Shown here piece after piece: positions 20,766-55,432 of a stretch of 64,000 nucleotides of DNA. Source of the stretch: Giardia intestinalis (Eukaryota); NCBI GenBank assembly GCA_000002435.2, contig CM018793.1. One strand, written 5' to 3'. The position numbers and the translations under genes are program-made. Position 1 is the first letter of the stretch. Each line of letters begins with the position of its first letter. Below the pieces are notes generated by a model, which made no database searches, was not told the DNA's origin, and saw only the letters and a list, made by a program, of their open reading frames with translations.

Positions 20766-21626
20766 ATGCATTTAGCGCAATCACTTGAAGAGCTCATTGC
20801 ATCGAGAAATGTGCAAGATGCGGTTAAATTTACAGCTGCAATGACCCAGGAGCAAAGGCTCACCATATCAGAAGACTTTCAAGAGCAATATGGCTCAAGT
20901 GTGGGAGATCATATTAGAAAGCTGATGTCACCATCAAGTTCCACCTCTCTTCTAATAAATATGTGGCTTCCTACAAAGATACTCCGTTTGCGTGTGTTAG
21001 AGCGGAACTTTAAGGAGCTCGTGCCTCTGGAGCTAGCGCACTGTGCAATCACCTGTCCCCAAGAAGAATTTGTAGAGATCTGCGACATTTACAATACTAC
21101 GGCGAAAGCCTCTCTGTATGCGGGGATTCGCAGGCAATGCATTGGGCCAGAGCCCTGGAAGTATCTCGTTCAACAATGGGTCACCTTCAATCATGGATCT
21201 ATAAGCAATTTGGTTTTTCTGAGAGACCAAGCGCGTTGTGCAATCGAAAGTGTCGACGGGAGGCTCTTCGTGGACACCATTTTCAGCGCAGATCGTACCG
21301 TTTGGCCAGTTGTCTGCAAAGAGTACGAATGCCAATATGGAGCACCACTGATCAAAGACCTAGCTGTGTTTGGTGAGGATTCTGCCCCTATTCTTTCGTT
21401 TGCATGCTTATTTATCTGTGACCAAACGCTAGCAATCTCTTATTTACTCAACCAGTTTATCATGACAGGTGACAATGATGGCGCAGGAATCGTATCCGCG
21501 CTGTATTCGGAAGAATGGCATGGGGTTCCTATGGCATATGTGCAGTATGGTTCTTTGAAAGAGGACATACGTGCCAACTTCAGCTCCCGATACACTGAGG
21601 CACTTGCAACAGTCTGGAAGATATAG
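20766..21626 (+). CDS. alpha-giardin (annexin-like, family E) paralog, first of a + strand triplet
   Basis: The 286-aa protein is built from annexin-like roughly 70-aa helical repeats. Its size, a C-terminal ...YTEALATVWKI and its tandem placement with two clear alpha-giardins support the call. The start is an ATG with a very AT-rich upstream (aaaaatttaaataaagaatttaaaaatac). Confidence 0.65.
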   Translation: MHLAQSLEELIASRNVQDAVKFTAAMTQEQRLTISEDFQEQYGSSVGDHIRKLMSPSSSTSLLINMWLPTKILRLRVLERNFKELVPLELAHCAITCPQEEFVEICDIYNTTAKASLYAGIRRQCIGPEPWKYLVQQWVTFNHGSISNLVFLRDQARCAIESVDGRLFVDTIFSADRTVWPVVCKEYECQYGAPLIKDLAVFGEDSAPILSFACLFICDQTLAISYLLNQFIMTGDNDGAGIVSALYSEEWHGVPMAYVQYGSLKEDIRANFSSRYTEALATVWKI

Positions 21627-21680
21627 TAAAGGCGACTGTAGTTTTGACGTTGATTGGCGGTATTGCTATTCCATAAAATT

Positions 21681-22613
21681 ATGTCCTACACTCAACTGAG
21701 TCGAGAGCTTCATGGGCTGGTTGAGGCTGGAGATGAGGTTGGCCTGGCTGTGTTTACTCGCAGGTTCAACGAGCTTCAGCGATCAGAGATGCAGATAGCC
21801 TATCAGGCTTTTCGCGGAGTGGACCTAACGTCCGAGATAAATAAGCGCCTTAAGAACAAAGCTCATGCAGAGCTCCTATCTTCGCTGTGGAAGGAAAGGA
21901 CCACAAATATCGTGGACACGCTCCAGGTCTTGATTAAGCGCAAGAAGAAGTGCCCCAGAGTCGTGCTTTCTGTGGTGTTTGGTAGTTCTCAGAACCAATG
22001 GGAGAAGGTGTCGGCAAGCTGGACAGCAATGTATAAGAATGATCTTTTGACTGCAATCAAGCAAGCCATTCAGCCTAGTGATTTTGTGAATCAGCTCATT
22101 GATAAGTGGGCAGCGGGGCCGCGATCTAACAATGGACAGCTTCGAGAAGGTGCCTATGCTTTAAAACAATCTTTACATGGAGAGGAACAGCCAGCTTTTG
22201 CAAATATTGACGATACAATGGACTACGACAAACTTTCTACAATTCTTGCCACCACCTCCTCCACAGAATGGCCTACCATAGTTTCCATTTATGAAAAGCT
22301 CTCAGGTGTTGCATTCGATAGCCTCCATATATTAGGTTCAAAGAAGTCCAAGATGGCATATGACACAGAGATATTGCACCTCGCAGCCCAGTTTGCTCGC
22401 AGCCCGGCAGAAGGCGTGGCTTATGCATTGAACTGGGCTGTTACTGACAAGGATCTTAGCGACATTTGTTCTTTGACAGCCCTCTTTGTCGACAAGGCTC
22501 CTCAGACAAACATCAGGTACCAGAAGTACGGGGTTCTCCGAGATGATCTCATAGCTGTGCTTACAAGTAAAGTGGCGGCTCCTATCGTCGAGCTTTGGGC
22601 TCCCGAGGCATGA
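21681..22613 (+). CDS. alpha-giardin paralog (annexin-like), second of + strand triplet
   Basis: The protein reads MSYTQLSRELHGLVEAGDEVGLAVFTRRFNELQRSEMQIAYQAFRG..., showing annexin repeat architecture. The track start at 21654 is TTG. The ATG at 21681 sits in ccataaaattATGTCC, the same MSY start context as the other alpha-giardins. Confidence 0.75.
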   Translation: MSYTQLSRELHGLVEAGDEVGLAVFTRRFNELQRSEMQIAYQAFRGVDLTSEINKRLKNKAHAELLSSLWKERTTNIVDTLQVLIKRKKKCPRVVLSVVFGSSQNQWEKVSASWTAMYKNDLLTAIKQAIQPSDFVNQLIDKWAAGPRSNNGQLREGAYALKQSLHGEEQPAFANIDDTMDYDKLSTILATTSSTEWPTIVSIYEKLSGVAFDSLHILGSKKSKMAYDTEILHLAAQFARSPAEGVAYALNWAVTDKDLSDICSLTALFVDKAPQTNIRYQKYGVLRDDLIAVLTSKVAAPIVELWAPEA

Positions 22614-22640
22614 CGTGGATGGATGTTAGTAAATTAAAAG

Positions 22641-23738
22641 ATGTCATACGGGAATATAGTAGGCCAGATAAGGGACATCCTAGATAACAGAGACCTTAAT
22701 GGGCTAATAGATGCAACAATTAGATATTCTCGACGCCAGCGGCGAGAGATCTCGCACCATTATGAAGAGTCATATGTATCAAGTTTTTCGCCAGGGAAGG
22801 AAGAAGAAGCCACGCAGCCCCTGAAAACAAGGAGAACAGTGTCAGAGAAAATGAGAAAGAACTACTTGTCAGATGCTGCGGATACCATCTTATCTGTAGA
22901 AGATACGGGGGTCATCCGACGTGATCTAACTGTAACAGAAGCACGGATGTTAGACTTAGCGACGATGGTGGCAGCAAGTAGCTATTCACCAGTGCTTGCA
23001 GAAGACATAGGAAAGTGCTTTAGAGGTGACGTGGGGGCTCTTCTTTCTTACTGGTGGTCAGACCCACTTGATTTACAATGCAGACTTCTCCACGATGCTT
23101 TGCGAGGAAAGGGGTGGCACGAGTATGTAGTCTCGATGTGTGTGTTTATGTGCCGGACAGAGGTTGACTGGCTGCGTCTCTGCAACACTTGGCATGCTAA
23201 GCACGGGACCGACCTTCGTGAACACGTTTACAAATGGGCGAATCCAAAACGCTCAGGGCATTCACTAGTGCTTTCGTGGCTGACCTACGATAAAATCACG
23301 TCTCCAAGTGCAGATGCAGATGCACTGACAATCAAGGAGGCTCTTGATAGGTCGGATCCCGACTTTGATTCTATAATCAGGGTTTTTGGTCTCAGATTGC
23401 CTGAAGAGTGGAAGGTAATCGTAGCTGCATACAAGAGAAGGTTCGGACACACTTTAGAAGAGGCCCTTGCCTCGATTCGATCTAAGCAGAAAGACAAGAT
23501 CTTCTTTGCCCTAGCACATGCCTCACTTCTGGGGCCAACTGCATTCACATGCTCTGTCCTTGATATTGCTGTACAGAATAAGGCATCTCCATCGTACTTT
23601 GCACTGATAGCAGGGGCCTTCTGTGATGCTGCCCTGAGAGGGGACGACGTATACGCAGACGAACTCTATAGCACTCTCACGCGCTACCCGCGGCAGTTCA
23701 CGGAGATATTCGTGAGCTTGTGGACGGCGGCGCCATAG
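22641..23738 (+). CDS. alpha-giardin paralog (annexin-like), third of + strand triplet, with C-terminal extension (365 aa)
   Basis: The protein reads MSYGNIVGQIRDILDNRDLNGLIDATIRYSRRQRREISHHYEESY... with repeated annexin-like helical units. The start context is taaattaaaagATGTCA. A plus-strand AGTAAAC lies at 23789-23795, downstream of the stop. Confidence 0.75.
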   Translation: MSYGNIVGQIRDILDNRDLNGLIDATIRYSRRQRREISHHYEESYVSSFSPGKEEEATQPLKTRRTVSEKMRKNYLSDAADTILSVEDTGVIRRDLTVTEARMLDLATMVAASSYSPVLAEDIGKCFRGDVGALLSYWWSDPLDLQCRLLHDALRGKGWHEYVVSMCVFMCRTEVDWLRLCNTWHAKHGTDLREHVYKWANPKRSGHSLVLSWLTYDKITSPSADADALTIKEALDRSDPDFDSIIRVFGLRLPEEWKVIVAAYKRRFGHTLEEALASIRSKQKDKIFFALAHASLLGPTAFTCSVLDIAVQNKASPSYFALIAGAFCDAALRGDDVYADELYSTLTRYPRQFTEIFVSLWTAAP

Positions 23739-37501: not shown

Positions 37502-37583
37502 GACAGTTTGGCCGAGTGGTTAAGGCGATTGACTAGAAATCAATTGTGCTCCGCACGCATGGGTTCGAATCCCATAGCTGTCG
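37502..37583 (+). tRNA. tRNA-Ser (anticodon AGA), class II tRNA with long variable arm
   Basis: I folded it by hand. The acceptor stem GACAGTT/AGCTGTC has 7 bp including one G-U pair. The D arm is GCC-GAGTGGTTAA-GGC, typical of Ser/Leu tRNAs. The anticodon stem ATTGA/TCAAT carries the loop CTAGAAA, giving anticodon AGA. There is a long variable arm (TGTGCTCCGCACGC), the T arm is ATGGG-TTCGAAT-CCCAT, and the discriminator is G. No CCA is encoded. Confidence 0.85.
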
Positions 37584-37605
37584 CTTTCGCCCCCAAAGAA
37601 AAAAG

Positions 37606-39693
37606 ATGCCCGACTTCGTCACCGAGCGCCTCGCCAAGTTCAACGCCCTGCGTGAGAGGCACGCCGCCTCGCAGCCCACCGGGGGCCCTTTCACTGTCAC
37701 GCTGCCCGATGGAAAGACCACCGAGATCCCCGCAAGCTTTACAGCCCTCGACGTGGCCAAACAAGTCGTCAAAAACAAGAAGGTCTACTCCAAGTTTCTG
37801 GCCGCCGTTAGGGACGACGAGGTCATTGACATGTCTGCAAGATTAGGGAAGACCTGCAAGCTCGAGTTCCTCACCTTTGACGACCCTCGGGCAAGAGAAG
37901 TTTTCTGGCACTCCTCTGCGCATCTTCTGGGCTATGCACTTGAAAAGACATTCCAGGCCCACCTAGGTCATGGCCCGGCTATCGACTCCGGCTTCTTCTA
38001 TGACGCCTTTTTCGAGAACTCTCTGAAGATGGAGCCCGAGAGTCTCCTGCAGCTCGACAAGGCAGCTGCAGAAATCGTGAAGCAGGCCGCAGCAGCACCT
38101 GGCGATTCTCCTGTCCGCCGCTTCACACGTCTCGAGGTGACCAAGCAAGAGGCTCTCGATCTCTTTAGCTATTCGAAACTGAAGTCAGAGCTTATATCGG
38201 ATCACGTGCAAGATGGAGAGATGTGCAGTGTGTACCAGTGCGGGGATTTTGTCGACTTCTGCCGCGGCCCACATATTCCTGACTTGGGTCTTATCCAAGC
38301 CTTCAAGTGCATGTACTCCTCTGCTGCCTACTTCAAGGGCGATCAGAACCGCGAGTCTATGCAGCGCGTTTATGCGGTTGCCTTCCCCAGCAAAGACCAA
38401 CTAGATAAGCACATTGAACTTCTCGAGGAGGCAAAGAGACGAGATCATAGAAATCTAGCCAAGGAAATGGATCTTTTCATGACGCACAAGTATGCTCCGG
38501 GCGCGCCAATGTTCATGAACAATGGCACACGGATCTACCGCAAGCTCGAAGCTTTTATTCGCGAGCTCCTCCATGAGTTTGATTATGAAGAGGTCATGAC
38601 ACCGACGTTTCTCAACACTGATCTTTGGGGTATCTCTGGGCACCTGCAGCATTATAAGGAGAACATGTTCTTGTTAGAACGCAAGGAGAAAACCGATCCC
38701 CAATACGGTCTGAAACCCATGAACTGTCCGTGTCACTGTCTCCTCTATAAGAACCAGCACCACTCAGTACAAGAGCTTCCGATACGGATGGCAGAGTTTG
38801 GAGTTGTGCACCGCAATGAGCTTTCCGGTGCCCTCTCTGGCCTGACTCGTGTAGTGCGTTTTGAGCAAGATGATGCACACATTTTCTGCACCGTTGATCA
38901 AATAGAGCAGGAAATGACTGGCTTGATCGAATTTATCAAACGCGTTTATACACCCTTCGGGATTGACTTTGCTCTATCCTTATCTCTGAGACCAGAGAAA
39001 AAGATGGGCTCCGATGAGCTCTGGGATCGTGCAGAGGGCACCCTTCGCAAAGTCTTGACGAACACCGGCCTCGATTTTAAGGAAAATCCCGGGGATGGAG
39101 CGTTTTACGGCCCGAAGATTGATGTCCATCTAACAGATGCCTTAGGAAGACAGCATCAGTGCGGTACCATTCAGCTTGACTTCAACCTCCCCAGTAAGGA
39201 TAGGTTCGACCTGCTTTACAGTGTTTATGACGAAAAGACAGGCAGCGTGAAGCAGGAGCACCCAGTGATGATTCATAGGGCTATCCTTGGATCCGTTGAG
39301 CGCTTCATGGCCATCCTTATTGAAAACACGGGAGGCCGCTTTCCCTTTTGGATCAGCCCTCGTCAAATTGTGGTCATTCCTCTCCATGGCGAAGATATCG
39401 TTGCATACGCCAAGACCGTCCGCGAGCGATACCATTCAAAGGGCTATTTTGTAGATCTCGATATATCTTCCGAAAAGATGGAGAAGAAAATAGCTGTTGC
39501 ATGGAACAAGAAGTACAACTTCATTATGGTTGTGGGAGCTCAGGAGAAAGGAACCTGCAGTGTAGCTCTTAGTGGCCGCACGCTTAGCGCTTACATCGGT
39601 GAAAAGGACAACCAGCGAGCACGCAAAGTCCTTACCCTAGAGGAAACGGACGCCCTGCTGGCAGAGCTGTCGAGTGGCCGCGCGAACATGTGA
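37606..39693 (+). CDS. threonyl-tRNA synthetase (cytosolic, class II)
   Basis: The protein has an N-terminal TGS-like region, an editing domain, a class II catalytic core (LKPMNCPCHCLLYK, FGVVHRNELSGALSGLTRVVRFEQDDAHIF, HRAILGSVERFMAILIEN) and a C-terminal anticodon-binding domain. The track ORF at 37546 starts inside the tRNA gene at a non-ATG codon. The real ATG at 37606 is preceded by ccccaaagaaaaaag. Confidence 0.92.
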   Translation: MPDFVTERLAKFNALRERHAASQPTGGPFTVTLPDGKTTEIPASFTALDVAKQVVKNKKVYSKFLAAVRDDEVIDMSARLGKTCKLEFLTFDDPRAREVFWHSSAHLLGYALEKTFQAHLGHGPAIDSGFFYDAFFENSLKMEPESLLQLDKAAAEIVKQAAAAPGDSPVRRFTRLEVTKQEALDLFSYSKLKSELISDHVQDGEMCSVYQCGDFVDFCRGPHIPDLGLIQAFKCMYSSAAYFKGDQNRESMQRVYAVAFPSKDQLDKHIELLEEAKRRDHRNLAKEMDLFMTHKYAPGAPMFMNNGTRIYRKLEAFIRELLHEFDYEEVMTPTFLNTDLWGISGHLQHYKENMFLLERKEKTDPQYGLKPMNCPCHCLLYKNQHHSVQELPIRMAEFGVVHRNELSGALSGLTRVVRFEQDDAHIFCTVDQIEQEMTGLIEFIKRVYTPFGIDFALSLSLRPEKKMGSDELWDRAEGTLRKVLTNTGLDFKENPGDGAFYGPKIDVHLTDALGRQHQCGTIQLDFNLPSKDRFDLLYSVYDEKTGSVKQEHPVMIHRAILGSVERFMAILIENTGGRFPFWISPRQIVVIPLHGEDIVAYAKTVRERYHSKGYFVDLDISSEKMEKKIAVAWNKKYNFIMVVGAQEKGTCSVALSGRTLSAYIGEKDNQRARKVLTLEETDALLAELSSGRANM

Positions 39694-39748: not shown

Positions 39749-40672
39749 TCATTTAGCAAGCTTCCAGAACATGAGGCATGCATCGCGGAAGTTAACCTTG
39801 TTGGCCTCCTTGCTCTGGAATCTGCTGAGGATGTCGTCGCGCATAACGCCCCAGCACGCGTAGTGGACCCAGGCGAACTTGTGAAGATCATGGAAGAGCC
39901 CGGTGATGCGGGCAGCCTGCTCGTAGGCCATATCATCGTTCTGCGTCTCTACTGCGCTGTGGAACGCGTAGGCGACAGCACGAGCAGGGGCCAAATTGTA
40001 GTAGTGTGCAATGCACAAACCTCTAGCATTCTCCTTGTCGGCATACCTTGTCTCAATTGCCTCTTGGACGCTCTTGCCCGTAAGGACCTCAAACCTGTGG
40101 TTAATCTCCTTGTACTCGTCGGCGGTGCTCGTGATAATCAGACGCACGACGGCCTCGTGGTCGGGCTCGTCTGCATCTATGAGGTTGTGCTTTAGAACCT
40201 CGGCATCGCTGGCCACCGATCCGCGGGGGGTACGGTTCTCTCTGATGGCAAGGTGGCAGAGGTAGCTCGCAGCAGAGGTGAGGGGTATCTGGTCCACGAA
40301 GTCTTGAAGGAGGTCATTTCCGGTCTTCTCTTTGTAGGCCTGGGCCAGCTTGAGGCGCTCATCGGGCGTGGCAATAAGAACGACGTCGTGGATAGCACGG
40401 AAGTCGTTAACATTCTTCATGGCCTTCTTGATAACGTTCACACGAGCGCTGATGTTGCAGTCCCAACCGAGAGCCATAACATCCTCGTATGGGCCATTCT
40501 TGATGCACTTCTTGAGGAAAGCAATGAACTCCAGCCCGGTGGTATCCTGGAACTGCGTGCGAAGCTCCTTGCGCTCCTCTGCGCTCCACCTTGACGTGAA
40601 AGTCACGAGCTCCTCCTCGTTTTTGGCTTCCAAGATGGCCTTGACCTCAGGGATAGCGTCTCCGTAGGACAT
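39749..40672 (-). CDS. alpha-giardin paralog (annexin-like), third of - strand triplet
   Basis: The protein reads MSYGDAIPEVKAILEAKNEEELVTFTSRWSAEERKELRTQFQDTTG... with annexin-like four-repeat architecture and a family-typical C-terminus. The track start at 40699 is TTG. The ATG at 40672 sits in ttttaaaataATGTCC. A minus-strand AGTGAAT at 39734-39740 lies 9 nt after the stop. Confidence 0.8.
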   Translation of the reverse strand: MSYGDAIPEVKAILEAKNEEELVTFTSRWSAEERKELRTQFQDTTGLEFIAFLKKCIKNGPYEDVMALGWDCNISARVNVIKKAMKNVNDFRAIHDVVLIATPDERLKLAQAYKEKTGNDLLQDFVDQIPLTSAASYLCHLAIRENRTPRGSVASDAEVLKHNLIDADEPDHEAVVRLIITSTADEYKEINHRFEVLTGKSVQEAIETRYADKENARGLCIAHYYNLAPARAVAYAFHSAVETQNDDMAYEQAARITGLFHDLHKFAWVHYACWGVMRDDILSRFQSKEANKVNFRDACLMFWKLAK

Positions 40673-40716
40673 TATTTTAAAACAGTCACACCTTTTCAAA
40701 TGCTTTTGAATTCAAA

Positions 40717-41628
40717 TTATGGGCACAGGGAAGGGATGCCCCACAAAGTAGCGCATGCGCGCGCAACTGGCTCGCGGAATACACGTCTTATATCGCTTCC
40801 AATGTCTCCATACCTTTTGTAGTGTTCTCCTATATCCTTCACTCTATCATAGCAGAAGGCTGTAACACGTATGAGTCTATCGTGGTCTCCATAGTCTGCA
40901 ACAGCCCTGTATATCAAGAGAGCAGCCGCCTCGGCCTGGCCTAGCAATGCTTGAGATGCTAGCTGGCAAGCAACAAGATCGTGCCGCCTGAGGGTGTTGC
41001 TAAGAACCGACATGAGGGTGTCTCCAGCCTGGCGCTCGAACGCATTCAAAGTAAATTGCCAGGTGCTGGGGTCTGCGGTCCCTATTATGAAGGCTATTGC
41101 ATCTATATCCTTCGTCCGAAGAGCAACAAGGAGCTTGTTAGCGTCAGCTTCAGGGTCAGTGCTCCGCAGCTTCTGTGACTCTATCCACAGGAGGCAAAGT
41201 TTCGCCCAGAGGGACGGAAGCTTCGAAAGAACTATGTTGAGCGTGGCTGGGAGCTGAGTCTTGTAGGTGGTACTGTACTCCTTGCAGATTGTATGCCATT
41301 CATTATTCCCCGCAGAATCACTTACTGTAGGCGATAGAATAATGGTATCGATCAAGGAGGGCGGATTAATGTTATCTACGATACCCGCATGAATGGTGCG
41401 GACTCGTGCCGCGGTGTTCATGCTCCACACTAGGGTCATAAGGAGCTGGATATGTCCCCTGGGCAGATAGAAAACGATAGAATCAGCTAGAGAACGGTTG
41501 TGAATAGAAAGGTAAGTGGCGGATAAATCCTTTTTGTCTTGTGCAAGCTTGCTTAGTTGCACAAGCTCTTGCTCATCCTGCGTCGTGAGACATCTGTGCA
41601 ATTCGGTGCATAAAGAGATGTGGTCCAT
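40717..41628 (-). CDS. alpha-giardin paralog (annexin-like), second of - strand triplet
   Basis: The C-terminal ...YKRYGDIGSDIRRVFREPVARACATLWG matches the alpha-1 giardin end motif Y.MYGD.G.DIER.F......LW that I recall. The track start at 41667 is GTG. The ATG at 41628 (MDHISLCTELHRCLTTQDEQELV) is preceded by caagcaaaaaactct. Confidence 0.8.
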   Translation of the reverse strand: MDHISLCTELHRCLTTQDEQELVQLSKLAQDKKDLSATYLSIHNRSLADSIVFYLPRGHIQLLMTLVWSMNTAARVRTIHAGIVDNINPPSLIDTIILSPTVSDSAGNNEWHTICKEYSTTYKTQLPATLNIVLSKLPSLWAKLCLLWIESQKLRSTDPEADANKLLVALRTKDIDAIAFIIGTADPSTWQFTLNAFERQAGDTLMSVLSNTLRRHDLVACQLASQALLGQAEAAALLIYRAVADYGDHDRLIRVTAFCYDRVKDIGEHYKRYGDIGSDIRRVFREPVARACATLWGIPSLCP

Positions 41629-41714
41629 AGAGTTTTTTGCTTGACTGGAGACTGTGACTTCCCACACATTTACTGACTGCTGACTACTTTTACTAGATTA
41701 CTAAGTTTACTAAG

Positions 41715-42605
41715 TTATAGAACCCCCCACATGGTACAACAGGCCTCGCCGAAATTGCTCTTGAACACTCTGCGAATATCGCGTGCTAGATTACCGAAAA
41801 TAGCGTAGTTAAGCTTCACGTGCGGGCATTTGTCGTAATACATTGCCGTTGCGCGTGCACATCTCTCAACGTCACCCTTCTCTTCGACCGCCCTGAAGAT
41901 CAGGTACGCAGCGCCCTCGTTGGCATTGTTCAGGAAATGATGTGCAGTATGCGCGGCCGTTAGATCGTTCCCCTTGAACACTGTGCGCATACAATCGTGG
42001 ACAGTGCGCGACGTGGAAATTTCAAAGGCCTTTGAAATGCGCGCCCACTCATCGGGAGTTGTGGTGCCCAAGAGCTGAACAACGGCGTCCTCGTCTGCTT
42101 TCTTGCCACTGAGCGCCACGCGAAGCGCCTCTGCGTCTCCGGCGGGGTCATTTCGGGGTGCTCGACGAAATGCTATCCAAGAGAGGCAGAGGCGCGCCCA
42201 AAATGTCTTCGACCCAAGCTCTTGGAGCAGGTCGTTTGATAGATCGCGTCCAGTGCTGTTCTGATAGTACCTAGTAATGTAGTCCCATTCGTCCGGATTC
42301 GTTGTCAAAATATAGTCACATATTGCCTTTGGATTTTTGCCACCCTTCATCAGGGTTGTAAGATTTTGCGCCTTCATCTCTGGATACGGCTCCCAGGCCA
42401 TTGACATAAGACTTTGGAAGGGTCCTTTTTTGCAGTACATCTTGATGGCCTCACTTATGACGCGACCATGGTGCGCTTGGAAGGCGTTGGAAATCTCCTG
42501 ACGTTCTGCAGTTTTGTACCTCGCTGTTATCTTAAGCAAACCATCGTCGTTGCCATCGATTAGATGACGATTCAGCTCGTCTGCAACCTTGATAAAATCG
42601 ACCAT
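41715..42605 (-). CDS. alpha-giardin paralog (annexin-like), first of - strand triplet (296 aa)
   Basis: The protein reads MVDFIKVADELNRHLIDGNDDGLLKITARYKTAERQEISNAFQAHHG... and ends ...NYAIFGNLARDIRRVFKSNFGEACCTMWGVL. I prefer the ATG at 42605 (context gataaaaaccaaATG) over the upstream ATG at 42701. That upstream ATG would add a lysine-rich 32-aa extension encoded by the AT-rich promoter itself. Confidence 0.8.
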   Translation of the reverse strand: MVDFIKVADELNRHLIDGNDDGLLKITARYKTAERQEISNAFQAHHGRVISEAIKMYCKKGPFQSLMSMAWEPYPEMKAQNLTTLMKGGKNPKAICDYILTTNPDEWDYITRYYQNSTGRDLSNDLLQELGSKTFWARLCLSWIAFRRAPRNDPAGDAEALRVALSGKKADEDAVVQLLGTTTPDEWARISKAFEISTSRTVHDCMRTVFKGNDLTAAHTAHHFLNNANEGAAYLIFRAVEEKGDVERCARATAMYYDKCPHVKLNYAIFGNLARDIRRVFKSNFGEACCTMWGVL

Positions 42606-42715
42606 TTGGTTTTTATCTGCTCGCGTGTTTGTAAATTGACAAGGACAGATATTTTTGTCAACTTTTTTGTTAATTTTACTCTTTTCATAGAATTTTTTCA
42701 TCTATTTGGCGGACG
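42606..42715. promoter_or_regulatory. AT-rich divergent promoter region shared by alpha-giardin (-) and the 888-aa hypothetical gene (+)
   Basis: A 110-bp spacer (ttggtttttatctgc...tttttgttaattttactcttttcatagaattttttcatctatttggcggacg) lies between two divergently oriented ATGs. Giardia promoters are short AT-rich initiator regions placed directly upstream of the ATG, which is established knowledge. Confidence 0.4.
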
Positions 42716-45439: not shown

Positions 45440-47656
45440 ATGACTACAAATCCCGTTGTAACTAGCCTCCTGTTAACTATCAACGAGATATCCCAACGCC
45501 AGGACACAACAATGCGTTTTGTTGAGCGGATAACGAAGCAGCTAGGTCATTTAAAAGGCGTAGTAGAATCCAGTCAGGGCCCGTTCCCAGGCTCCAAGAT
45601 GACAAAAGAGGAGTTAGCTACATCGTTGGGAGAGATACTAAAATACATAGAAGCTAATTTATTAGAGACTAACGATGTTCGTGAGCTGCTTTCAGGCTTG
45701 GAGGAGACACTTAATGGAATTGGTTCATCGTCAGACAAAGCCCTATTGAAAACCAAGCTGAGCCTAGGTCTTTCTGATTGCTACCTTATAATGGAGGGAC
45801 TTCTTGCAGCGAAAGACATAGGGCAATACATCCTATTAAATACTGACAAAGAAACTAAGCAAGACACGCCTTCAGAATTAGATACCGATAAGCAAGATGA
45901 TGAGCTTTCCATTCACGTTGATATATTATCAGAGAGCCTCGCCGATGAAGCGTCCTTATTGACAGTGGGAGAAAAGCTACCTGACCTTGAACGACGAGTC
46001 AAATTCGATCACGATAACGGGTCCTCTCTCAGTAGCCTTCCTGAATCAACTGTGCTGACTAGTTTGACTAGCGTCTGCCCTGCTGGATCACCTAATTCTG
46101 CGAAGAGTGCTTCAAAAACATCTATACAAGCAAAATTAGAAGAGTTTCTAGCAATTAGAGCTAGTGCAAAACAGAAGAAGCCCGAACTTGTCACCAAGCT
46201 TCCTCCAGCTGTGCCCCAACAACATGGAAAGAACCCCCCGATCTCATCTCTCAACCTAAGCGTGACCAGTGTGGATTCCAATGCAAATGATAGCCTGATA
46301 ACAGAGCCAGCTCCCTTGGCCGTTAGTGCCAGTGTGCTAGACCCCACGGAGCCACAGAATGGCCGCCAAAACATCGCACCAATACAATCTCTCAAAACCC
46401 TGGAATCTGTCTCAGAACTAGAACAGCGAAACCTGGAGAAGAAACATAACCCTATGACTAACCCACAGCAAGCATTGATAAAGTCTAATCGAAGTAATAA
46501 AAGTTGCACTGGGACTAGTACACGCTCTGGAAGTACTAACAGGACCCCCTTAAGAGCCATAAATACACCTCACCAGAGCAGCCAACCAGCCCAGACTGCA
46601 GTAAGACCTAGCTCTGTTAAGAAGTCTAGACCTATAGTGTTATTGGACAATGTTTCTTTGAGCATGGCGACTTCACCGCAACAGGTTCAAGCCACGGAGC
46701 TTACAGGCCATCCTGTGAAGAATTATTCGGGTAAAATATCCAAGCGGACTCCGTGCTCGATGCCTGCCACGCCGACAAAGTTTATATCTCCTAAGCAGCC
46801 TCAAGCGAAGTCATACTATAGTACCCCTACCTCCACAACACCAACCTCAGTACAGGTGGGGCGTTTACCCTCGCCACCCAAGCTATCATCTCGTTCTCCA
46901 TCCTCTGGTTCCCCAGCAACGGCCTCTTCGCAGGCTCGGCTAGTTATTAAAAACATGGAGGAGCAGGCTTTGAAACAGGACGCTATAATAAAGGGTTTGG
47001 CTACAGAGCTACAATCTATGAAACGGAAGGTCGAGGACATGCAGACTGATTATAGGCAGCAGGAAGAGGAAGTTAAGCAATTACTCTTAGAGTCTTCCAA
47101 GGTCCAGAATGAGTACGAAGAAAAAATCCGTAAACTCAAAGATGAGCTCGCTGAGCAAAGAGATCTAGCAATTTATTGGAGAGAAAAGGCACAGCAATGG
47201 GAGGAGATGAATCAGGCTTTAAGCCACCAGATTGCAATGTTTAAATACAACAAAGATGATTCCATTATACCCGTTTCACATGGGGACACCGATGGTGAGA
47301 ATTCAGAAGGTGCCAGCTCAATTGCAGGTACATATGCACACAAAAGCAGAGAGCCTACACACTCTACGTCCATAATTCAGCAACCCAGCAAAATACAGAG
47401 TAAGCCAGACTACACTACCTTATCTGATGAGAAGTACAACAGGCTAGAAACAGACTATCTTAATGGACGCCTAGGAAACTATTACAGCCTCAATAGAGAA
47501 AGATTTTCACAGAAGACCTTATCTGTGATAGATCTATACAAGATTCTTGGTAACTATGATCGTCAAATTGCAGAGCTGATGCATTCAAACAAAGATTTAG
47601 AGGAAAAGTTGGATGTATATCAGGGTCTGTTTAGGGCTATTTCAGGGGCCGATTGA
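45440..47656 (+). CDS. hypothetical S/T/P-rich protein (738 aa) with C-terminal coiled coil
   Basis: The track start at 45419 is TTG. The ATG at 45440 is preceded by cttaaattca. The central region is S/T/P/Q-rich. The C-terminal 230 aa or so are heptad coiled coil (MEEQALKQDAIIKGLATELQSMKRKVEDMQTDYRQQEEEVKQLLLESSKVQNEYEEKIRKLKDELAEQRDLAIYWREKAQQWEEMN). Confidence 0.5.
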   Translation: MTTNPVVTSLLLTINEISQRQDTTMRFVERITKQLGHLKGVVESSQGPFPGSKMTKEELATSLGEILKYIEANLLETNDVRELLSGLEETLNGIGSSSDKALLKTKLSLGLSDCYLIMEGLLAAKDIGQYILLNTDKETKQDTPSELDTDKQDDELSIHVDILSESLADEASLLTVGEKLPDLERRVKFDHDNGSSLSSLPESTVLTSLTSVCPAGSPNSAKSASKTSIQAKLEEFLAIRASAKQKKPELVTKLPPAVPQQHGKNPPISSLNLSVTSVDSNANDSLITEPAPLAVSASVLDPTEPQNGRQNIAPIQSLKTLESVSELEQRNLEKKHNPMTNPQQALIKSNRSNKSCTGTSTRSGSTNRTPLRAINTPHQSSQPAQTAVRPSSVKKSRPIVLLDNVSLSMATSPQQVQATELTGHPVKNYSGKISKRTPCSMPATPTKFISPKQPQAKSYYSTPTSTTPTSVQVGRLPSPPKLSSRSPSSGSPATASSQARLVIKNMEEQALKQDAIIKGLATELQSMKRKVEDMQTDYRQQEEEVKQLLLESSKVQNEYEEKIRKLKDELAEQRDLAIYWREKAQQWEEMNQALSHQIAMFKYNKDDSIIPVSHGDTDGENSEGASSIAGTYAHKSREPTHSTSIIQQPSKIQSKPDYTTLSDEKYNRLETDYLNGRLGNYYSLNRERFSQKTLSVIDLYKILGNYDRQIAELMHSNKDLEEKLDVYQGLFRAISGAD

Positions 47657-49799: not shown

Positions 49800-50306
49800 C
49801 TACTTGGAGTCCTCATTGAACAGAGTAACGTACTGTGATAAAACTTCTTCTAAATTATCATCTCCAAAGATGGCAAATGGCTTCAAGACAATGCATTGAA
49901 AAAGCCGACCCATGGCACACACAGGTCTTGATATTTCATAAGGCGTTATGGTTTCCATGTAACTATCTAAGGTAGCTCCGCAGGTCATTATTACGCGCCA
50001 CTTCTTCTGTGCAAGTGGCTTCTGAGCACCCCCTGCCCATTCTATAGTGAACACACAGTCCAGAAATGCCTTCATAGATGCTGGACAATTATACCAATAC
50101 ACTGGGTACTGGAAGAAGATGGCGTCTGCCTTTTCGATGCGTCGCTGCTCCTCGGCTATCTGCTCTTTGGATAAAACGAGGGCGGGATATAGCCCATCGA
50201 GATGCCGTATCTTTATATTCTTCTGGTCGCGCACCTTGTCTAGGAGGGTCTTATTTACTTTGGAAGCCGGCTCCAACGGGTGTGAATAGTAAAGAAGAAT
50301 CCTCAT
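49800..50306 (-). CDS. NAD(P)H oxidoreductase, flavodoxin-like fold (KefF/MdaB/general stress protein 14 family; Flavodoxin_2)
   Basis: The protein reads MRILLYYSHPLEPASKVNKTLL...IKIRHLDGLYPALVLSKEQIAEEQRRIEKADAIFFQYPVYWYNCPASMKAFLDCVF. It aligns closely with E. coli KefF as I recall it (MILIIYAHP...IRSLYQLYPDFNIDIAAEQEALSRADLIVWQHPMQWYSIPPLLKLWIDKVF). The track start at 50330 is TTG. The ATG at 50306 is preceded by gtacataaaa. Confidence 0.8.
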   Translation of the reverse strand: MRILLYYSHPLEPASKVNKTLLDKVRDQKNIKIRHLDGLYPALVLSKEQIAEEQRRIEKADAIFFQYPVYWYNCPASMKAFLDCVFTIEWAGGAQKPLAQKKWRVIMTCGATLDSYMETITPYEISRPVCAMGRLFQCIVLKPFAIFGDDNLEEVLSQYVTLFNEDSK

Positions 50307-50361
50307 TTTTATGTACCTTCTCCAATCCAAGGTTGTGCCTTTGAAACATGCAAACCGGAAT

Positions 50362-50856
50362 TTACTTAAAGAGCTTCAAATAGTTATCCACTAGTGTGTC
50401 CTTGTCAGTGTCAGCAAAAACGATGAAAGGCGGGAGCGGATCGCACTTGCAGAACTTGAAGCTTTGGTTAAAAGGCTTAGCTAAGTCGCTTGCAGAAAGT
50501 TCTCCGCCATAGCCTTCCATCTTCCCTCCGCACGTGCAGATGACACGGAACTTCTTGCCCGCGATCACGGCCTTGGAGCCGAAGGCCCACCCGTACGTCA
50601 GCACGCTATCCATAAAGACCTTAAGAGAAGGCGGTGATGAATACCAATGCACGGGGAACTGGAAGAAAACTGCGTCCGCCTTCTCTATGATCCTTTGCTC
50701 CTCGCTGACCTGCTCAGGGGTCATATGCAGGCTCGGGTAGAGCTCATCCAGCCAGCGGACTTTTACGTTTCCGAGCTTCTTGGCCTCCTCAACGAGGGGT
50801 GCGTTGACGACGCTCTTCAACTCCGCAGGGTGGGAGTAGTAGAGGACGATACGCAT
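50362..50856 (-). CDS. NAD(P)H oxidoreductase, flavodoxin-like fold (tandem paralog of the preceding gene)
   Basis: The protein reads MRIVLYYSHPAELKSVVNAPLVEEAKKLGNVKVRWLDELYPSLHMTPEQVSEEQRIIEKADAVFFQFPVHWYSSPPSLKVFMDSVL. It is roughly half identical to the neighbouring paralog by eye. The ATG at 50856 is preceded by ccgtttaaaa. The track start at 50886 is TTG. Confidence 0.8.
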   Translation of the reverse strand: MRIVLYYSHPAELKSVVNAPLVEEAKKLGNVKVRWLDELYPSLHMTPEQVSEEQRIIEKADAVFFQFPVHWYSSPPSLKVFMDSVLTYGWAFGSKAVIAGKKFRVICTCGGKMEGYGGELSASDLAKPFNQSFKFCKCDPLPPFIVFADTDKDTLVDNYLKLFK

Positions 50857-50904
50857 TTTTAAACGGCTGAATAATATCAACCACAATAATTTGAGGCAAA
50901 TTGT

Positions 50905-51720: not shown

Positions 51721-54084
51721 TCACTCGCGCACGTCTAGAAGCACCAGGTAGGAGAAAAGAAAGACCAAGAGAGACATTATGATCTTAGACATGTGGAAGG
51801 GAGACCGAAAAAGGAACAACACCCATGCTGAATAGAACAGGCCCATGCTTATGGCATAGGCACACACGTTGCGTTGCGATATACAGAAGTTGAAAATGTG
51901 AGAGTGGAAAATACGACGGCATACACAGACAGAGCAAAAGTAGCAATACGTCCCCTGCTCAGGTTTCAAACAGGTTGAGCACAGATGGCTAGCCTCTGGT
52001 AATGCACTATCAGGTTTCACGGAAACCAAAACTCCGGCTAAATGCTGTCTATTTTCCTTGTCGCTGGAGAGGTCAAAAGGTGGCCGAGGTTCTACTGTAT
52101 AGAGGCAGTTGGCAGATCGGGTGAGCGACCTCGACACCAGAACATCACAGATCCTATAGACGGGTTCGGCGCTCATGATAGCCGAACAGGATGCAGAAGT
52201 GTCCGGAGTGTGTGTGCCTGTGCCTGTGCCTGTACCTGTACTTGTACCTGCATCAGTGTGCTCTTCTATCATCCTCCGGCTATTCCACATGTCATCGGAG
52301 AACCTTGAACTTTGCATGAAATCGTTCTTCGCTAGCGATATTGATGCCGTGCGGTCCAACCGCAAAGCATAGGTAGTAATAAAGAACAATGCTGAGAAGA
52401 CAACAGATACTAAAGAGCCTATTTGCAAGGTAAAATTATAGAGCCTGTGCTCAAGCAAGGTGCGTAGAGATGGTAGTAAGAAAAGCATGTAATTCTGCAC
52501 CCGTTTTGAAGTATGTGTCTGTATCGGCAGCTGAGTAGATTGATCTAAAAATAACTCGATCAGAATGCTGATTCCCAATCCAAGAAGCGATGCGGCATAC
52601 AGCAATATACCTGTATATCTAGATAGGCAGTCCAGGACTATGCCATACGTTGAACAGGTATTAGTGAGTATCTTGCAAGCAAGGGAATTTGGACACACGC
52701 AAGACAGATCAGAATTCATACAACACCCCTGCTGCATGAACCTCCGAGCTGACCTCTTATCAGATGCTGTGTAAACCATCTGCATAGAGCCGCAAATTTT
52801 CGCTTTGCAGAACTTCTCCGCTGCCCGAAAGAGCATTTTCTTTTCTGCGATTGACCTAGATATTATGAAATTGTAAATGTTGTGATACTGTTCTGTGTAA
52901 AATAAAAGCTCAATTACGCTACATCCCCTTGCAAAGGCATGTAGCAGAGGTAACTGCATATGTGGCTCATCATCTATTTTTAGGGGAAGCATTGTTACCA
53001 ACAGGTCGTCGGCTATAGAATGCTTTATCAAAAGGGACACTATGTCTCTGTTACTATAGAGTATGGCAAGGGCGAGGGCATTCGTCTGCAGGTTTCCAAA
53101 CCTGTGCTGCAGCTGCTTGCGGAGTGCAGTTTCTCCACCGATCTCCTTAATTAAATGGACTATGGCCGATACACAGTCAATAGAGTTAGACGAAATAGCA
53201 CAGCTTAAAAGATTGATGTTCGTGTCTTTTGTGAGTACGTCAATCATCCCCTTGTCATACTGCAGCAGCCAGAGGACACAGGAAAGGCGACCATTGAGGG
53301 CGGCAGCATGTATAGGAAGCATGCCGCAGGTGTCATAAGCATAGCAAAGAGGTGTCTCCGTGTCCTCGCCAGTCGTTAATTTGGAGGACATTAGGTATGA
53401 AAGACTATCAAAGTTGACCGCAGAGAGTGTGTGCATATCATTCGTTATGATAAGGTCGCGAAAGCTAACCCCTCCTCCAAACTGTGAATAGACTGAGAGA
53501 ATATACTTAATAATAAATGTGTTACCACGAATAATAGCTAACTGGAGGAGCCTTGTAACGTCCACAACATTCATTATGCTAAGTACGCAGTGGGCCTGCA
53601 ATGTTTGACTAAACAAGCTTGTAGCGAATTCATCTATGTAGAAGTTTGCTGAAATCACCATGGGCTCAGCAGAATGTCTATCAGTCAGTGCCGCCAACTC
53701 AATGGGCAGGAGCTGAAGAGAATTCGAGGACCTCGTCTCAAGCAGGAGTCGGAGTGAATCTGGACACGATTTTCTTAGGTCAAGTAAGCTGTATGTTGTG
53801 ATCTCTCCTAACACTATCAGATGCGCAATGTTGAATCCCCGCAGCGTAAAAGAACCGATATCATCTATTGATGCATTCTGAATACTAGCAAATCCGTTCT
53901 CGTTCAGACGCTGTACAGCTCCGGTGGGATTGTCCGGTTTAGTATCCTCGAACTTACGGCAATCTAAAACAGCTCTGGCCAGGGTAGAGTCGACATTATC
54001 CTCGAGCTCTTCGAGGGTCGAGGGAGCGACTACACAAAGATCATTTTGAGTCCTAATCCCCATGCGCCGGATTAGCTCAAAAGG
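51721..54084 (-). CDS. ankyrin-repeat membrane protein with a degenerate DHHC-type cysteine-rich domain (AKR1/ZDHHC13/17-like architecture, catalytic Cys apparently lost)
   Basis: Ankyrin repeats (MLPIHAAALNGRLSCVLWLL, NLLSCAISSNSIDCVSAIVHLI, NALALAILYSNRDIVSLLI) are followed by TM segments (ILLYAASLLGLGISILIELFL, LQIGSLVSVVFSALFFITTYAL). Near the C-terminus, CSTCLKPEQGTYCYFCSVCVCRRIFHSHIFNFCISQRN parallels the DHHC-CRD C-x2-C-x9-HC-x2-C-x2-C-x4-DHHC-x5-C-x4-N, but has HSHI where DHHC should be. Two further TMs follow. Start choice is uncertain: in-frame ATGs occur at 54405, 54177 and 54084. The ATG at 54084 has the best AT-rich context (aaaatattaATG) and avoids overlap with the phosphatase gene. 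Confidence 0.45.
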   Translation of the reverse strand, partial: PFELIRRMGIRTQNDLCVVAPSTLEELEDNVDSTLARAVLDCRKFEDTKPDNPTGAVQRLNENGFASIQNASIDDIGSFTLRGFNIAHLIVLGEITTYSLLDLRKSCPDSLRLLLETRSSNSLQLLPIELAALTDRHSAEPMVISANFYIDEFATSLFSQTLQAHCVLSIMNVVDVTRLLQLAIIRGNTFIIKYILSVYSQFGGGVSFRDLIITNDMHTLSAVNFDSLSYLMSSKLTTGEDTETPLCYAYDTCGMLPIHAAALNGRLSCVLWLLQYDKGMIDVLTKDTNINLLSCAISSNSIDCVSAIVHLIKEIGGETALRKQLQHRFGNLQTNALALAILYSNRDIVSLLIKHSIADDLLVTMLPLKIDDEPHMQLPLLHAFARGCSVIELLFYTEQYHNIYNFIISRSIAEKKMLFRAAEKFCKAKICGSMQMVYTASDKRSARRFMQQGCCMNSDLSCVCPNSLACKILTNTCSTYGIVLDCLSRYTGILLYAASLLGLGISILIELFLDQSTQLPIQTHTSKRVQNYMLFLLPSLRTLLEHRLYNFTLQIGSLVSVVFSALFFITTYALRLDRTASISLAKNDFMQSSRFSDDMWNSRRMIEEHTDAGTSTGTGTGTGTHTPDTSASCSAIMSAEPVYRICDVLVSRSLTRSANCLYTVEPRPPFDLSSDKENRQHLAGVLVSVKPDSALPEASHLCSTCLKPEQGTYCYFCSVCVCRRIFHSHIFNFCISQRNVCAYAISMGLFYSAWVLFLFRSPFHMSKIIMSLLVFLFSYLVLLDVRE
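52207..52250. repeat. imperfect (GT/AC)n-(GCCTGT)n microsatellite inside coding sequence (encodes TGTGTGTGTH on the minus strand)
   Basis: The sequence gtgtgtgtgcctgtgcctgtgcctgtacctgtacttgtacctg is read directly. On the coding minus strand it translates as a Thr-Gly dipeptide repeat within a disordered linker of the ankyrin/DHHC-like protein. Confidence 0.6.
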
Positions 54085-54175
54085 CATTAATATTTTAGGG
54101 TGCCATAAAACAGAAACGGCCGCTTCAAAAAATCGGCACTGTAAAAAAAGCCGTTGGGCCGAAATTTGAGGAGCC

Positions 54176-55432
54176 ATGGGTATGACACATTCCTTCATCA
54201 CAGAGTGGGATAATACCCCCAAGACCAAGATGCGTTTTAGTCGGGAGGTAAGCTTTGCAGAACTCCAAAGGGTGACCAACTGTATGGCTAAGCACGAAAT
54301 TCCCAGCATTGAGGACTTTATATGGGTGCTTAAGGAAGCTGCTAAGGTTCTTTCCACTTTACCAAATAATGTCCACGTGATTCCTGAGCCTAATGACCGC
54401 CTCATCTTTGTTGGGGATTTGCACGGGTGCTTTGAGACATTGATACGTTTATTCCTTGGGTATCCGCAACAAAATATCCCCAGAACGGGCTTCCCAGGTG
54501 AGATAGTTGATGGCAGACGCCTTGTTTACTTTTTCAACGGAGACTTTGTTGACCGAGGAGGGTCTGGATATCAGATTGTCTTCCTCCTGGCGTACATGGC
54601 AATTGCCTGCCCTGGTTCGTGCTATCTAAATCGCGGAAATCACGAGTCCGAAATGTTCGGTCTTTCGACGCAGGGCATGCTTGGGAACAAGTTCATGTCG
54701 GAGATGGCTGGTAAATTTTCTGGAATGGACCCGGAGACGTACAGGCCAGCTATTGGCGAATTCTTTTGCGCCCTTCCCATTGCCCACACCATAGATCGCA
54801 ATATATTTATGGTGCACGGTGGGGTACCCCTGGGAGACGACCTCAGTAATGTTCCGCGAGCTGCTCCGCAATCGTATTTCAGCACCGGGTCGCCTGCCCC
54901 CATACCCAAGGGGCTCAAGCCATACAAGATAAGCAACCTGGACAACCTAACTCCCTCACGCCAAAAAACAACGAACTTTGAAGACAATCCTCGCAAACAA
55001 AATGAGCTCTGGCACTCCTTTGTCTGGAACTATGACCGTCTACCGTACAGCGCCGACTTCATGGAAGAGAATAATTTCAAGACTATGGTTCACTCACATA
55101 CGGCCACCCCGTTCCACCAGATAACGTCCTTCCTTCCGCTTGAGAAAACCTCGGGAGAAAAGTACTCCATCCAATCGGTCATTAAGAACCAGGAGATGTT
55201 CGATAGAATGAAGGCTTTCTTCGCGAGCCACCAACTAGCAAACAGCAGTAAGCTCTCCATCTTGGAAATCTTCTCTTCTCCCACTAATAACGGGACTGTG
55301 TACGCAGCCTGTGTTGACGCCGTCCCCGGGGAGCCAGGCCAACGCATCAACTACGACCCCTTCCAGTGGACTTACATCTTCTTGGGTAACGCATCAGAGT
55401 ATAACTTTATACAGCAAGGAACCACGTACTAG
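54176..55432 (+). CDS. PPP-family Ser/Thr protein phosphatase (calcineurin-like metallophosphoesterase fold) with insertions
   Basis: The protein carries GDLHG (VGDLHGCFETL), GDFVDRG, GNHE (NRGNHESEMF) and HGG (MVHGGVP) in canonical order. The pre-GDLHG region resembles the PP1 N-terminus. ATG candidates are at 54176, 54182, 54230 (MRFSREVSFAELQRV, which gives a PP1-like 57-aa lead) and 54284. The C-terminal 120 aa or so are a non-canonical extension. Confidence 0.75.
   Translation: MGMTHSFITEWDNTPKTKMRFSREVSFAELQRVTNCMAKHEIPSIEDFIWVLKEAAKVLSTLPNNVHVIPEPNDRLIFVGDLHGCFETLIRLFLGYPQQNIPRTGFPGEIVDGRRLVYFFNGDFVDRGGSGYQIVFLLAYMAIACPGSCYLNRGNHESEMFGLSTQGMLGNKFMSEMAGKFSGMDPETYRPAIGEFFCALPIAHTIDRNIFMVHGGVPLGDDLSNVPRAAPQSYFSTGSPAPIPKGLKPYKISNLDNLTPSRQKTTNFEDNPRKQNELWHSFVWNYDRLPYSADFMEENNFKTMVHSHTATPFHQITSFLPLEKTSGEKYSIQSVIKNQEMFDRMKAFFASHQLANSSKLSILEIFSSPTNNGTVYAACVDAVPGEPGQRINYDPFQWTYIFLGNASEYNFIQQGTTY

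Follow-up and report, generated by a model that had tools for sequence, protein, structure and literature searches.

The adjacent genes GL50803_17150 and GL50803_17151 of Giardia intestinalis encode a known and a putative NADPH oxidoreductase of the YwrO/KefF-like type with a probable bacterial origin

The NADPH oxidoreductases of Giardia are represented in the literature by three paralogues, 17150, 17151 and 15004, which have been variously referred to as NADPH oxidoreductase, NAD(P)H:menadione oxidoreductase and 'DT-diaphorase' (PMC5355454, PMC7912051, PMC4570179). In the current analysis we have considered a tandem pair of such genes encoded on the minus strand at positions 49800-50856 of a stretch of 64,000 nucleotides of Giardia intestinalis DNA (contig CM018793.1 of the assembly GCA_000002435.2), the whole of which is referred to below as the window. 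Mueller et al. (2021) purified the recombinant 17150 protein, which has a flavoprotein spectrum with absorbance at 450 nm and about 0.7 flavin per monomer, strongly prefers NADPH over NADH and uses menadione, dinitrotoluene, 7-nitrocoumarin and metronidazole as substrates (PMC7912051). The same study described the paralogues 15004 and 17151, with sequence identities of 86.6% and 44.2% respectively, found the best matches to be bacterial and proposed a lateral transfer; in the same paper bacterial YwrO, too, is described as reducing quinones with NADPH and as having nitroreductase activity (PMC7912051). The adjacency of 17150 and 17151 and their identity of 43% have been reported by Ansell et al., who inferred a duplication (PMC5355454). 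The three paralogues are also listed by Ankarklev et al. (2015), according to whom 17150 is highly diverse within assemblage A (PMC4570179). In the 'NADPH oxidoreductase' trees of Jimenez-Gonzalez et al. (2019) the Giardia enzyme is of bacterial origin, with a donor that could not be identified, and is independent of the enzymes of the same name in Spironucleus and Kipferlia (PMC6934886). Every part of the interpretation given to this locus in an initial annotation, made from the sequence alone, is thus already known from the literature, and the finding of that scan adds nothing to it.

The pair encoded in the window is the annotated pair GL50803_17150 and GL50803_17151 of G. intestinalis WB (assemblage A, chromosome 5), so that there is no difference between the window genes and these two members of the described system. 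The translations match exactly the proteins XP_001705109.1 / A8BSH8 (17150) and XP_001705108.1 / A8BSH5 (17151) of G. intestinalis ATCC 50803 / WB clone C6, both of which are annotated as 'putative NADPH oxidoreductase' on a record of 4.02 Mb. The primers published for the cloning of ORF (open reading frame) 17150 agree exactly with both ends of the upstream gene, down to its first and last base (PMC7912051). The third paralogue, GL50803_15004, is located elsewhere in the genome, outside the window (PMC7912051), and no third copy of the 17150/17151 family has been identified within the 64 kb of the window.

The initial annotation had described two adjacent paralogues of roughly 165 amino acids on the same strand, and minus-strand ORFs of 164 and 168 amino acids occupy precisely the interval that it gave. 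According to the ORF listing and its translations, the upstream gene, GL50803_17150, occupies 50362-50856, from an ATG at 50856 to a TAA at 50362 (164 amino acids), and the downstream gene, GL50803_17151, occupies 49800-50306, from an ATG at 50306 to a TAG at 49800 (168 amino acids). The spacer between them, read directly from the sequence, is of 55 base pairs (bp) at 50307-50361. In a BLASTP comparison the two proteins share an identity of 44% over 163 residues with 0 gaps (E 4e-55), which confirms the tandem pair far beyond chance. Two plus-strand ORFs of 68 and 71 amino acids lie antisense to 17150 at 50534-50862, without evidence of coding here; they are probably the 'pseudogene GL_34649' that is described by Ansell et al. 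as having confounded the counts of antisense transcripts (PMC5355454). The Rfam and tRNA scans gave nothing connected with the 17150/17151 locus.

The Pfam family Flavodoxin_2 (PF02525), with a gathering threshold of 27 bits, is assigned to both proteins, with 109.2 bits for 17150 (positions 1-180 of the 198 of the model) and 92.1 bits for 17151 (positions 1-194). The best NCBIfam models for both are KefF (NF002044), with 114.2 and 93.6 bits, and KefG (NF003430), with 88.6 and 85.8 bits. As the equivalog cut-offs, 210 for KefF and 240 for KefG, lie far above these scores, the two proteins are not considered to be KefF or KefG themselves. Among the proteins of the PDB, the best match is to 5lva, an NAD(P)H-FMN (flavin mononucleotide) oxidoreductase (E 4.5e-25 for 17150 and 1.6e-15 for 17151), and the other top matches are the FMN complex of general stress protein 14 (3f2v) and KefF of E. 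coli (3eyw, E 7.5e-21). Remoter matches include NQO2 (E 5e-10), NQO1 (E 2e-6) and the MdaB structure 2amj (E 2.7e-4, confined to 34 residues). For 17151, AlphaFold gave a model with a predicted local distance difference test score (pLDDT) of 93.1 and a predicted template modelling score (pTM) of 0.90, and the protein is predicted to adopt the flavodoxin-like three-layer alpha/beta fold. A Foldseek comparison of this model gave template modelling (TM) scores of 0.85-0.89 to 5lva, 3f2v and KefF and of about 0.7 to NQO1, NQO2 and MdaB. The sequence matches of 17150 to the same PDB entries are stronger than those of 17151.

An alignment of 161 sequences, comprising 12 from Giardia and 149 others, has also revealed the residues that characterise this group, those conserved in 90-100% of the 149 non-Giardia relatives being regarded as near-invariant. 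Seventeen positions are kept in both genes, namely H9, P10, S15, N18, Y40, E53, Q66, P68, W71, P75, K79, D83, G93, K101, G110, Y116 and P128. The near-invariant motifs present in both consist of the N-terminal HP..S..N loop, the segment QxPxxWY..P..LK..D, G110 and Y116.

On the basis of these sequence comparisons, both proteins are placed in the YwrO / general stress protein 14 / KefF-like branch of Flavodoxin_2. The Pfam, NCBIfam, PDB and Foldseek matches agree in supporting the earlier description of bacterial-type Flavodoxin_2 NAD(P)H oxidoreductases. The label 'KefF/MdaB' used in that description is replaced by the above assignment; KefF is retained in the name of a KefF-like branch only, the identity with KefF or KefG being lost on the cut-offs and that with MdaB on a marginal similarity. 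The identity of the proteins as MdaB is rejected on the short match to 2amj and on the want of any NCBIfam match to MdaB. An orthology to NQO1/NQO2 is likewise rejected, in view of the E-values to 5lva, NQO2 and NQO1 given above and of the size of the Giardia proteins, which are of only 164 and 168 amino acids.

The prominence of KefF and KefG among the NCBIfam models, together with that of E. coli KefF among the best structural matches, raises the question of a different role, in which 17150 and 17151 would be regulatory subunits, similar to KefF and KefG, of a glutathione-gated K+ efflux system and not free-standing reductases. Their scores of 94-114 bits are far under the equivalog cut-offs, however, and a Pfam scan of 24 of the 27 other long ORFs, which covered the 64-kb window only and left out three long ORFs, including one of 3208 amino acids, revealed neither K+/H+ antiporter domains nor those of other transporters. 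All three paralogues were modelled on KefF (3EYW) by Ansell et al., who reported that the residues in contact with KefC are not conserved (PMC5355454), and 17150 is active alone as a soluble reductase (PMC7912051). A role as subunits of an efflux system is therefore considered very improbable.

When 1.84 billion cluster representatives were searched with a profile, 4165 matches were obtained, some of which could be named by a word-indexed profile search. The named non-Giardia relatives among the best matches are encoded in Paenibacillus, Bacillus (YwrO), Brevibacillus and others, as well as in Campylobacter. The named close relatives are thus from Bacillota and Campylobacter, and the sole non-bacterial one is from Dysnectes brevis. 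The genes for two of the relatives are also found in bacterial neighbourhoods, that of P0043 with a LysR regulator and an aldo-keto reductase and that of P0285 with a murein peptidase, BON and TerC. Only two eukaryotic homologues were found outside Giardia, one in Dysnectes brevis and the other on the contig SRR31929897_48327, and there is no broad eukaryotic clade among the matches. The nesting of the Giardia proteins among bacterial sequences points to a lateral acquisition from bacteria. The lateral origin put forward in the initial annotation holds on these grounds, as the named relatives are bacterial with one exception, NQO1 and NQO2 are far remoter and the published tree concurs (PMC6934886). 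A eukaryotic NQO-type enzyme as best match would have spoken against a lateral transfer, and the best match is the bacterial-type 5lva and not NQO1 or NQO2.

The Giardia sequences of the alignment are monophyletic in 98-100% of neighbour-joining (NJ) bootstraps with five distance corrections and two alignment methods. Maximum-likelihood (ML) trees were calculated with our own program, using a rate matrix derived from BLOSUM62, four gamma categories and a search by nearest-neighbour interchange, for 28 taxa and 166 columns. The best ML tree has one Giardia clade, the stem of which is 0.49 substitutions per site long. When 17151 is placed beside the nearest sequences from outside Giardia, 30 +/- 12.7 and 50 +/- 14.8 units of log-likelihood (lnL) are lost, with support of <=0.006 by resampling of estimated log-likelihoods (RELL). 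The 17150-type and 17151-type proteins also have in common three rare characters, namely an insertion of 3 residues before Glu53, a deletion of 4 residues after Tyr116, and Phe81, which is found only in Giardia among the 161 sequences, the others having Trp (130) or Tyr (19). On account of the NJ monophyly, the ML costs and these three shared characters, one acquisition followed by duplication is well supported, and the tandem duplication after transfer that had been suggested from the sequence is borne out.

The identity of the two proteins to each other, of just 44%, is not much above the 35-39% that they share with their best bacterial homologues in the alignment, and this could be taken to mean that 17150 and 17151 entered by two independent transfers from different bacteria and are adjacent by chance. 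The monophyly of the Giardia sequences, the cost of 30-50 lnL for 17151 outside Giardia and the presence of the insertion, the 4-residue deletion and Phe81 in both genes speak against two transfers, to which we attach next to no weight. The pair is accordingly best described as the known Giardia reductase pair of the YwrO / general stress protein 14 / KefF branch, and a single bacterial acquisition followed by tandem duplication is very probably its history.

Some observations weigh against this description. The two eukaryotic homologues mean that the family is not strictly confined to Giardia and bacteria. The sister of the Giardia clade varies between bootstrap replicates, and the trees, which are by NJ and a home-made ML program, are based on only about 170 columns. 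The 17151 protein has three substitutions relative to the consensus of the family, G89E, G100Q and S73N, and one proteome contained no peptides of it (PMC7912051).

The closest relative outside Giardia, P0188, is encoded at 8001-8525 of the Logan contig SRR31929897_48327, which is of 30.5 kb. It is surrounded by eukaryotic genes, coding for CBF, UDP-glucose pyrophosphorylase (UDPGP), BIVM and WD40 proteins. The contig has a GC content of 51%, closely spaced gene calls without spliced gene models, and TAA, TAG and TGA as stop codons; a genetic code of the Spironucleus/Hexamita type is ruled out by the use of all three. Of seven proteins of this contig that were looked up, six were present in the collection of clusters, and none of the seven shared a cluster with a named protein. 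The P0188 gene ends in AAG-TAA-ATTCC, as does 17150, and its product is the reciprocal best non-Giardia match of the Giardia proteins. The other eukaryotic relative, P0153, is a protein of the Dysnectes brevis transcriptome (EukProt EP00768 P008469) that has part of the loop insertion of the Giardia type. An insertion of 2-3 residues with a 'PE' motif is found in Giardia, P0188 and P0153 only among the 161 aligned sequences, and an ML tree with P0188 as the sister of Giardia is only 0.08 lnL below the best tree.

These features of P0188 and P0153 would be expected if the gene had been acquired by an earlier ancestor among the metamonads or fornicates and inherited vertically, surviving in Dysnectes brevis and in the organism of contig SRR31929897_48327 and being lost or replaced in diplomonads of the Spironucleus type. 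In the best-scoring ML tree and in the majority of NJ bootstraps, however, sequences of bacterial or metagenomic provenance, namely P0265, P0285 and the Campylobacter protein P0174, are the neighbours of Giardia. These three, which are the most frequent sisters, also have a lengthened loop, although it is aligned elsewhere, and the insertion is for this reason suggestive and not decisive. Dysnectes as the sister of Giardia costs 10 +/- 9 lnL, and the best matches of P0153 are bacterial; P0153 could be a true fornicate gene or a bacterial contamination of the transcriptome. A published survey, moreover, reported NADPH oxidoreductase only in diplomonads and Kipferlia (PMC6934886). An acquisition by such an earlier ancestor is a possibility to which we give appreciably less than even weight. 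Should P0188 and P0153 be genuine relatives, the entry of the bacterial gene would precede the origin of Giardia, by which the lateral-transfer reading would be refined and not overturned. The two eukaryotic relatives thus constitute one small new lead, according to which the acquisition may have preceded Giardia.

The duplication itself has also been considered in other Giardia. The tandem pair with the same flanking genes is found on a metagenome contig of a Giardia similar to assemblage B. In G. muris, genes of the 17150 type (61% identity) with identical protein sequences occur at three loci, and no second Flavodoxin_2 gene was found beside them at the three loci examined. In the comparison with other Giardia suggested in the initial annotation, the pair is conserved on the assemblage-B-like contig, and only the 17150-type gene is present at the three G. 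muris loci. A word-index search with 17151 alone retrieved only G. intestinalis clusters and missed even 17150 with its identity of 44%, so that it cannot show an absence of 17151 from G. muris. The G. muris genes are located at about 833 kb and about 846 kb of CM016925, in inverted orientation, and at about 541 kb of CM016928. Two of the copies lie in a large inverted duplication along with genes for peroxiredoxin (AhpC-TSA), ankyrin-kinase (NEK-like) and variant-specific surface proteins (VSP).

With NJ, 17151 branches first among the Giardia sequences in 42-98% of the replicates, depending on the distance correction; this basal position is possibly an effect of long-branch attraction. With ML, 17151 is preferred as the sister of the G. 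intestinalis 17150/15004 group (RELL 0.69 against 0.30), the difference being 3.6 +/- 7.0 lnL. The ML branch of 17151 is 0.665 long, against 0.137 for its sister group. A correct ML tree would imply that the origin of 17151 is later than the separation from G. muris and that its sequence changed rapidly. Combined with the eukaryotic relatives, this would give a family older than Giardia, forming a small metamonad clade that includes the genes of Dysnectes brevis and of the compact eukaryotic genome with a standard code in SRR31929897 and is marked by a unique loop insertion, in which 17151 was born after the G. muris split, underwent a burst of change and was then frozen under constraint. We regard this combined history as tentative and rather unlikely as a whole. 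Were it true, the published view of an acquisition specific to Giardia would be contradicted, and the burst followed by constraint would suggest a new substrate or partner for 17151.

The comparison with the assemblage-B-like orthologues gave a ratio of nonsynonymous to synonymous substitution rates (dN/dS) of 0.081 for 17150 (dN 0.108), 0.021 for 17151 (dN 0.047) and 0.134 for the neighbouring ankyrin gene (dN 0.160), ratios which are rough because dS is near saturation. Both genes are under strong purifying selection, and the constraint is clearly greater on 17151 than on 17150. This bears on the possibility that 17151 is a decaying or non-functional duplicate, for which its low expression of about 40 transcripts per million (TPM), against about 800 TPM for 17150 (PMC5355454), the lack of peptides in one study (PMC7912051) and the long ML branch could be cited. 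The ORF of 17151 is nevertheless intact in assemblages A, B and E, its dN is below that of 17150, and its core residues are kept in a confidently predicted fold. The gene is also regulated in drug-resistant lines, being down-regulated in 3 of 3 metronidazole-resistant lines (PMC5355454). A decaying 17151 is most improbable on this evidence, and the gene is regarded here as a constrained member of the pair.

The GC content at third codon positions (GC3) is 0.707 in 17150 and 0.512 in 17151; the 27 other genes of the window have a mean of 0.512 (sd 0.065) and a maximum of 0.726 in alpha-11 giardin. The value for 17150 resembles that of alpha-11 giardin, which represents the other highly expressed type of gene here, and is better accounted for by strong expression than by a foreign composition. 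In relative synonymous codon usage, the similarity of the two genes to the pool of window genes is unremarkable, at the 14th and 20th percentiles. No compositional sign of a recent transfer was seen in GC3 or codon usage against the window genes, and the comparison with neighbours proposed in the initial annotation therefore yields a Giardia-like composition, within the range of the window, and lends no support to recency. The motif AGTAAA at 50361-50366 overlaps the stop codon of 17150, and we take it to be a polyadenylation motif of the Giardia type. A-rich stretches precede the ATG of both genes (TTTAAAAATG and CATAAAAATG). The former lies in the 48 bp upstream of 17150 (50857-50904, minus strand), which extend up to the stop of an adjoining gene of 257 amino acids, and the A-rich ACATAAAAATG directly precedes the start codon of 17151 inside the 55-bp spacer. 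These stretches are presumably the usual initiator signals of Giardia.

The flanking genes are those of an ordinary Giardia region and code for ankyrin-repeat proteins, a metallophosphoesterase, alpha-giardins, a proteasome subunit, threonyl-tRNA synthetase and a cyclin. There is no hint of a mobile element or a KefC-like transporter among them. Contamination or an artefact of assembly is rejected in view of the chromosome-scale record, the conserved synteny and the Giardia-like composition.

The 17150 protein is a flavin-dependent NADPH:quinone reductase with nitroreductase activity, and the role in the reduction of quinones and nitro drugs, which the initial annotation could offer only as a suggestion, has been demonstrated for it by published enzymology (PMC7912051). 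The 17151 protein is a diverged paralogue and, from its sequence, a putative quinone reductase. Both are proteins of about 18 kDa with a single flavodoxin-fold domain, 17150 being a flavoenzyme and 17151 presumably one, and the window holds two of the three paralogues. The bound flavin is expected to be reduced by hydride transfer from NAD(P)H, preferably NADPH, and to pass the electrons to quinones such as menadione and to nitro compounds including metronidazole; both steps are known from the literature for 17150 and are likely to extend to 17151, and in the 15004 paralogue O2 also serves as an electron acceptor. The potential role of these enzymes is that of general soluble quinone and nitro reductases in redox stress and drug metabolism. 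They are of importance to Giardia for the detoxification of O2 and quinones and for the activation or detoxification of drugs of the metronidazole type. As for their history, the gene would have been acquired in a single transfer from bacteria, either by the Giardia lineage or by an earlier ancestor among the metamonads, and would by now be fully adapted to its host in composition and signals. The tandem duplication would then have been followed by a strong divergence of 17151, to 44% identity, and by tight purifying selection at low expression, leaving 17150 as the highly expressed and probably codon-optimised copy.

Other features of the window have also been identified. Alpha-giardin (annexin-like) genes occur as tandem groups of three in two places, at 20766-23738 on the plus strand and 39749-42701 on the minus strand, and the alpha-11 giardin gene with the highest GC3 of the window lies within the latter at 39749-40672. 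A single tRNA-Ser(AGA) gene at 37502-37584 (plus strand) is situated just upstream of the threonyl-tRNA synthetase gene at 37606-39693. A coiled-coil protein of 738 amino acids with low complexity, encoded at 45440-47656 on the plus strand, has an N-terminal match to the Pfam winged-helix family Rrf2 that is borderline (30.0 bits, cut-off 30); the same weak match is seen in its orthologue on the assemblage-B-like contig. The gene at 51721-54405 on the minus strand codes for an ankyrin-repeat membrane protein of 894 amino acids with a Thr-Gly repeat encoded by (GT)n, TGTGTGTGTGTH, at about 52150-52200, which is likely to be a site of length variation.

Among the known systems outside Giardia, the YwrO and general stress protein 14 enzymes (5lva, 3f2v) are the best matches in both sequence and structure, being single-domain proteins of about 170-175 amino acids with the same conserved motifs. 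Their identity to the Giardia proteins is 26-39%, and the latter differ in the 3-residue insertion before Glu53, the 4-residue deletion after Tyr116 and the replacement of Trp/Tyr by Phe81. KefF and KefG of E. coli, the ancillary subunits of KefC and KefB, are of the same subfamily and fold, with a TM of 0.85-0.87 for KefF, and KefF is itself a quinone oxidoreductase; the Giardia proteins differ from them in scoring under the equivalog cut-offs and in that the window yielded no partner similar to KefC. The vertebrate enzymes NQO1 and NQO2 (DT-diaphorase) belong to the same Flavodoxin_2 superfamily and have the two-electron reduction of quinones and nitro compounds in common with the Giardia enzymes, but they are larger, with 230-273 amino acids and extra segments, and are more distant in sequence (E 1e-6 to 1e-10, 17-19% identity) and structure (TM about 0.7). 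MdaB of E. coli is also a flavodoxin-like quinone reductase, but is related at a TM of about 0.7 and an identity of 18-19%.

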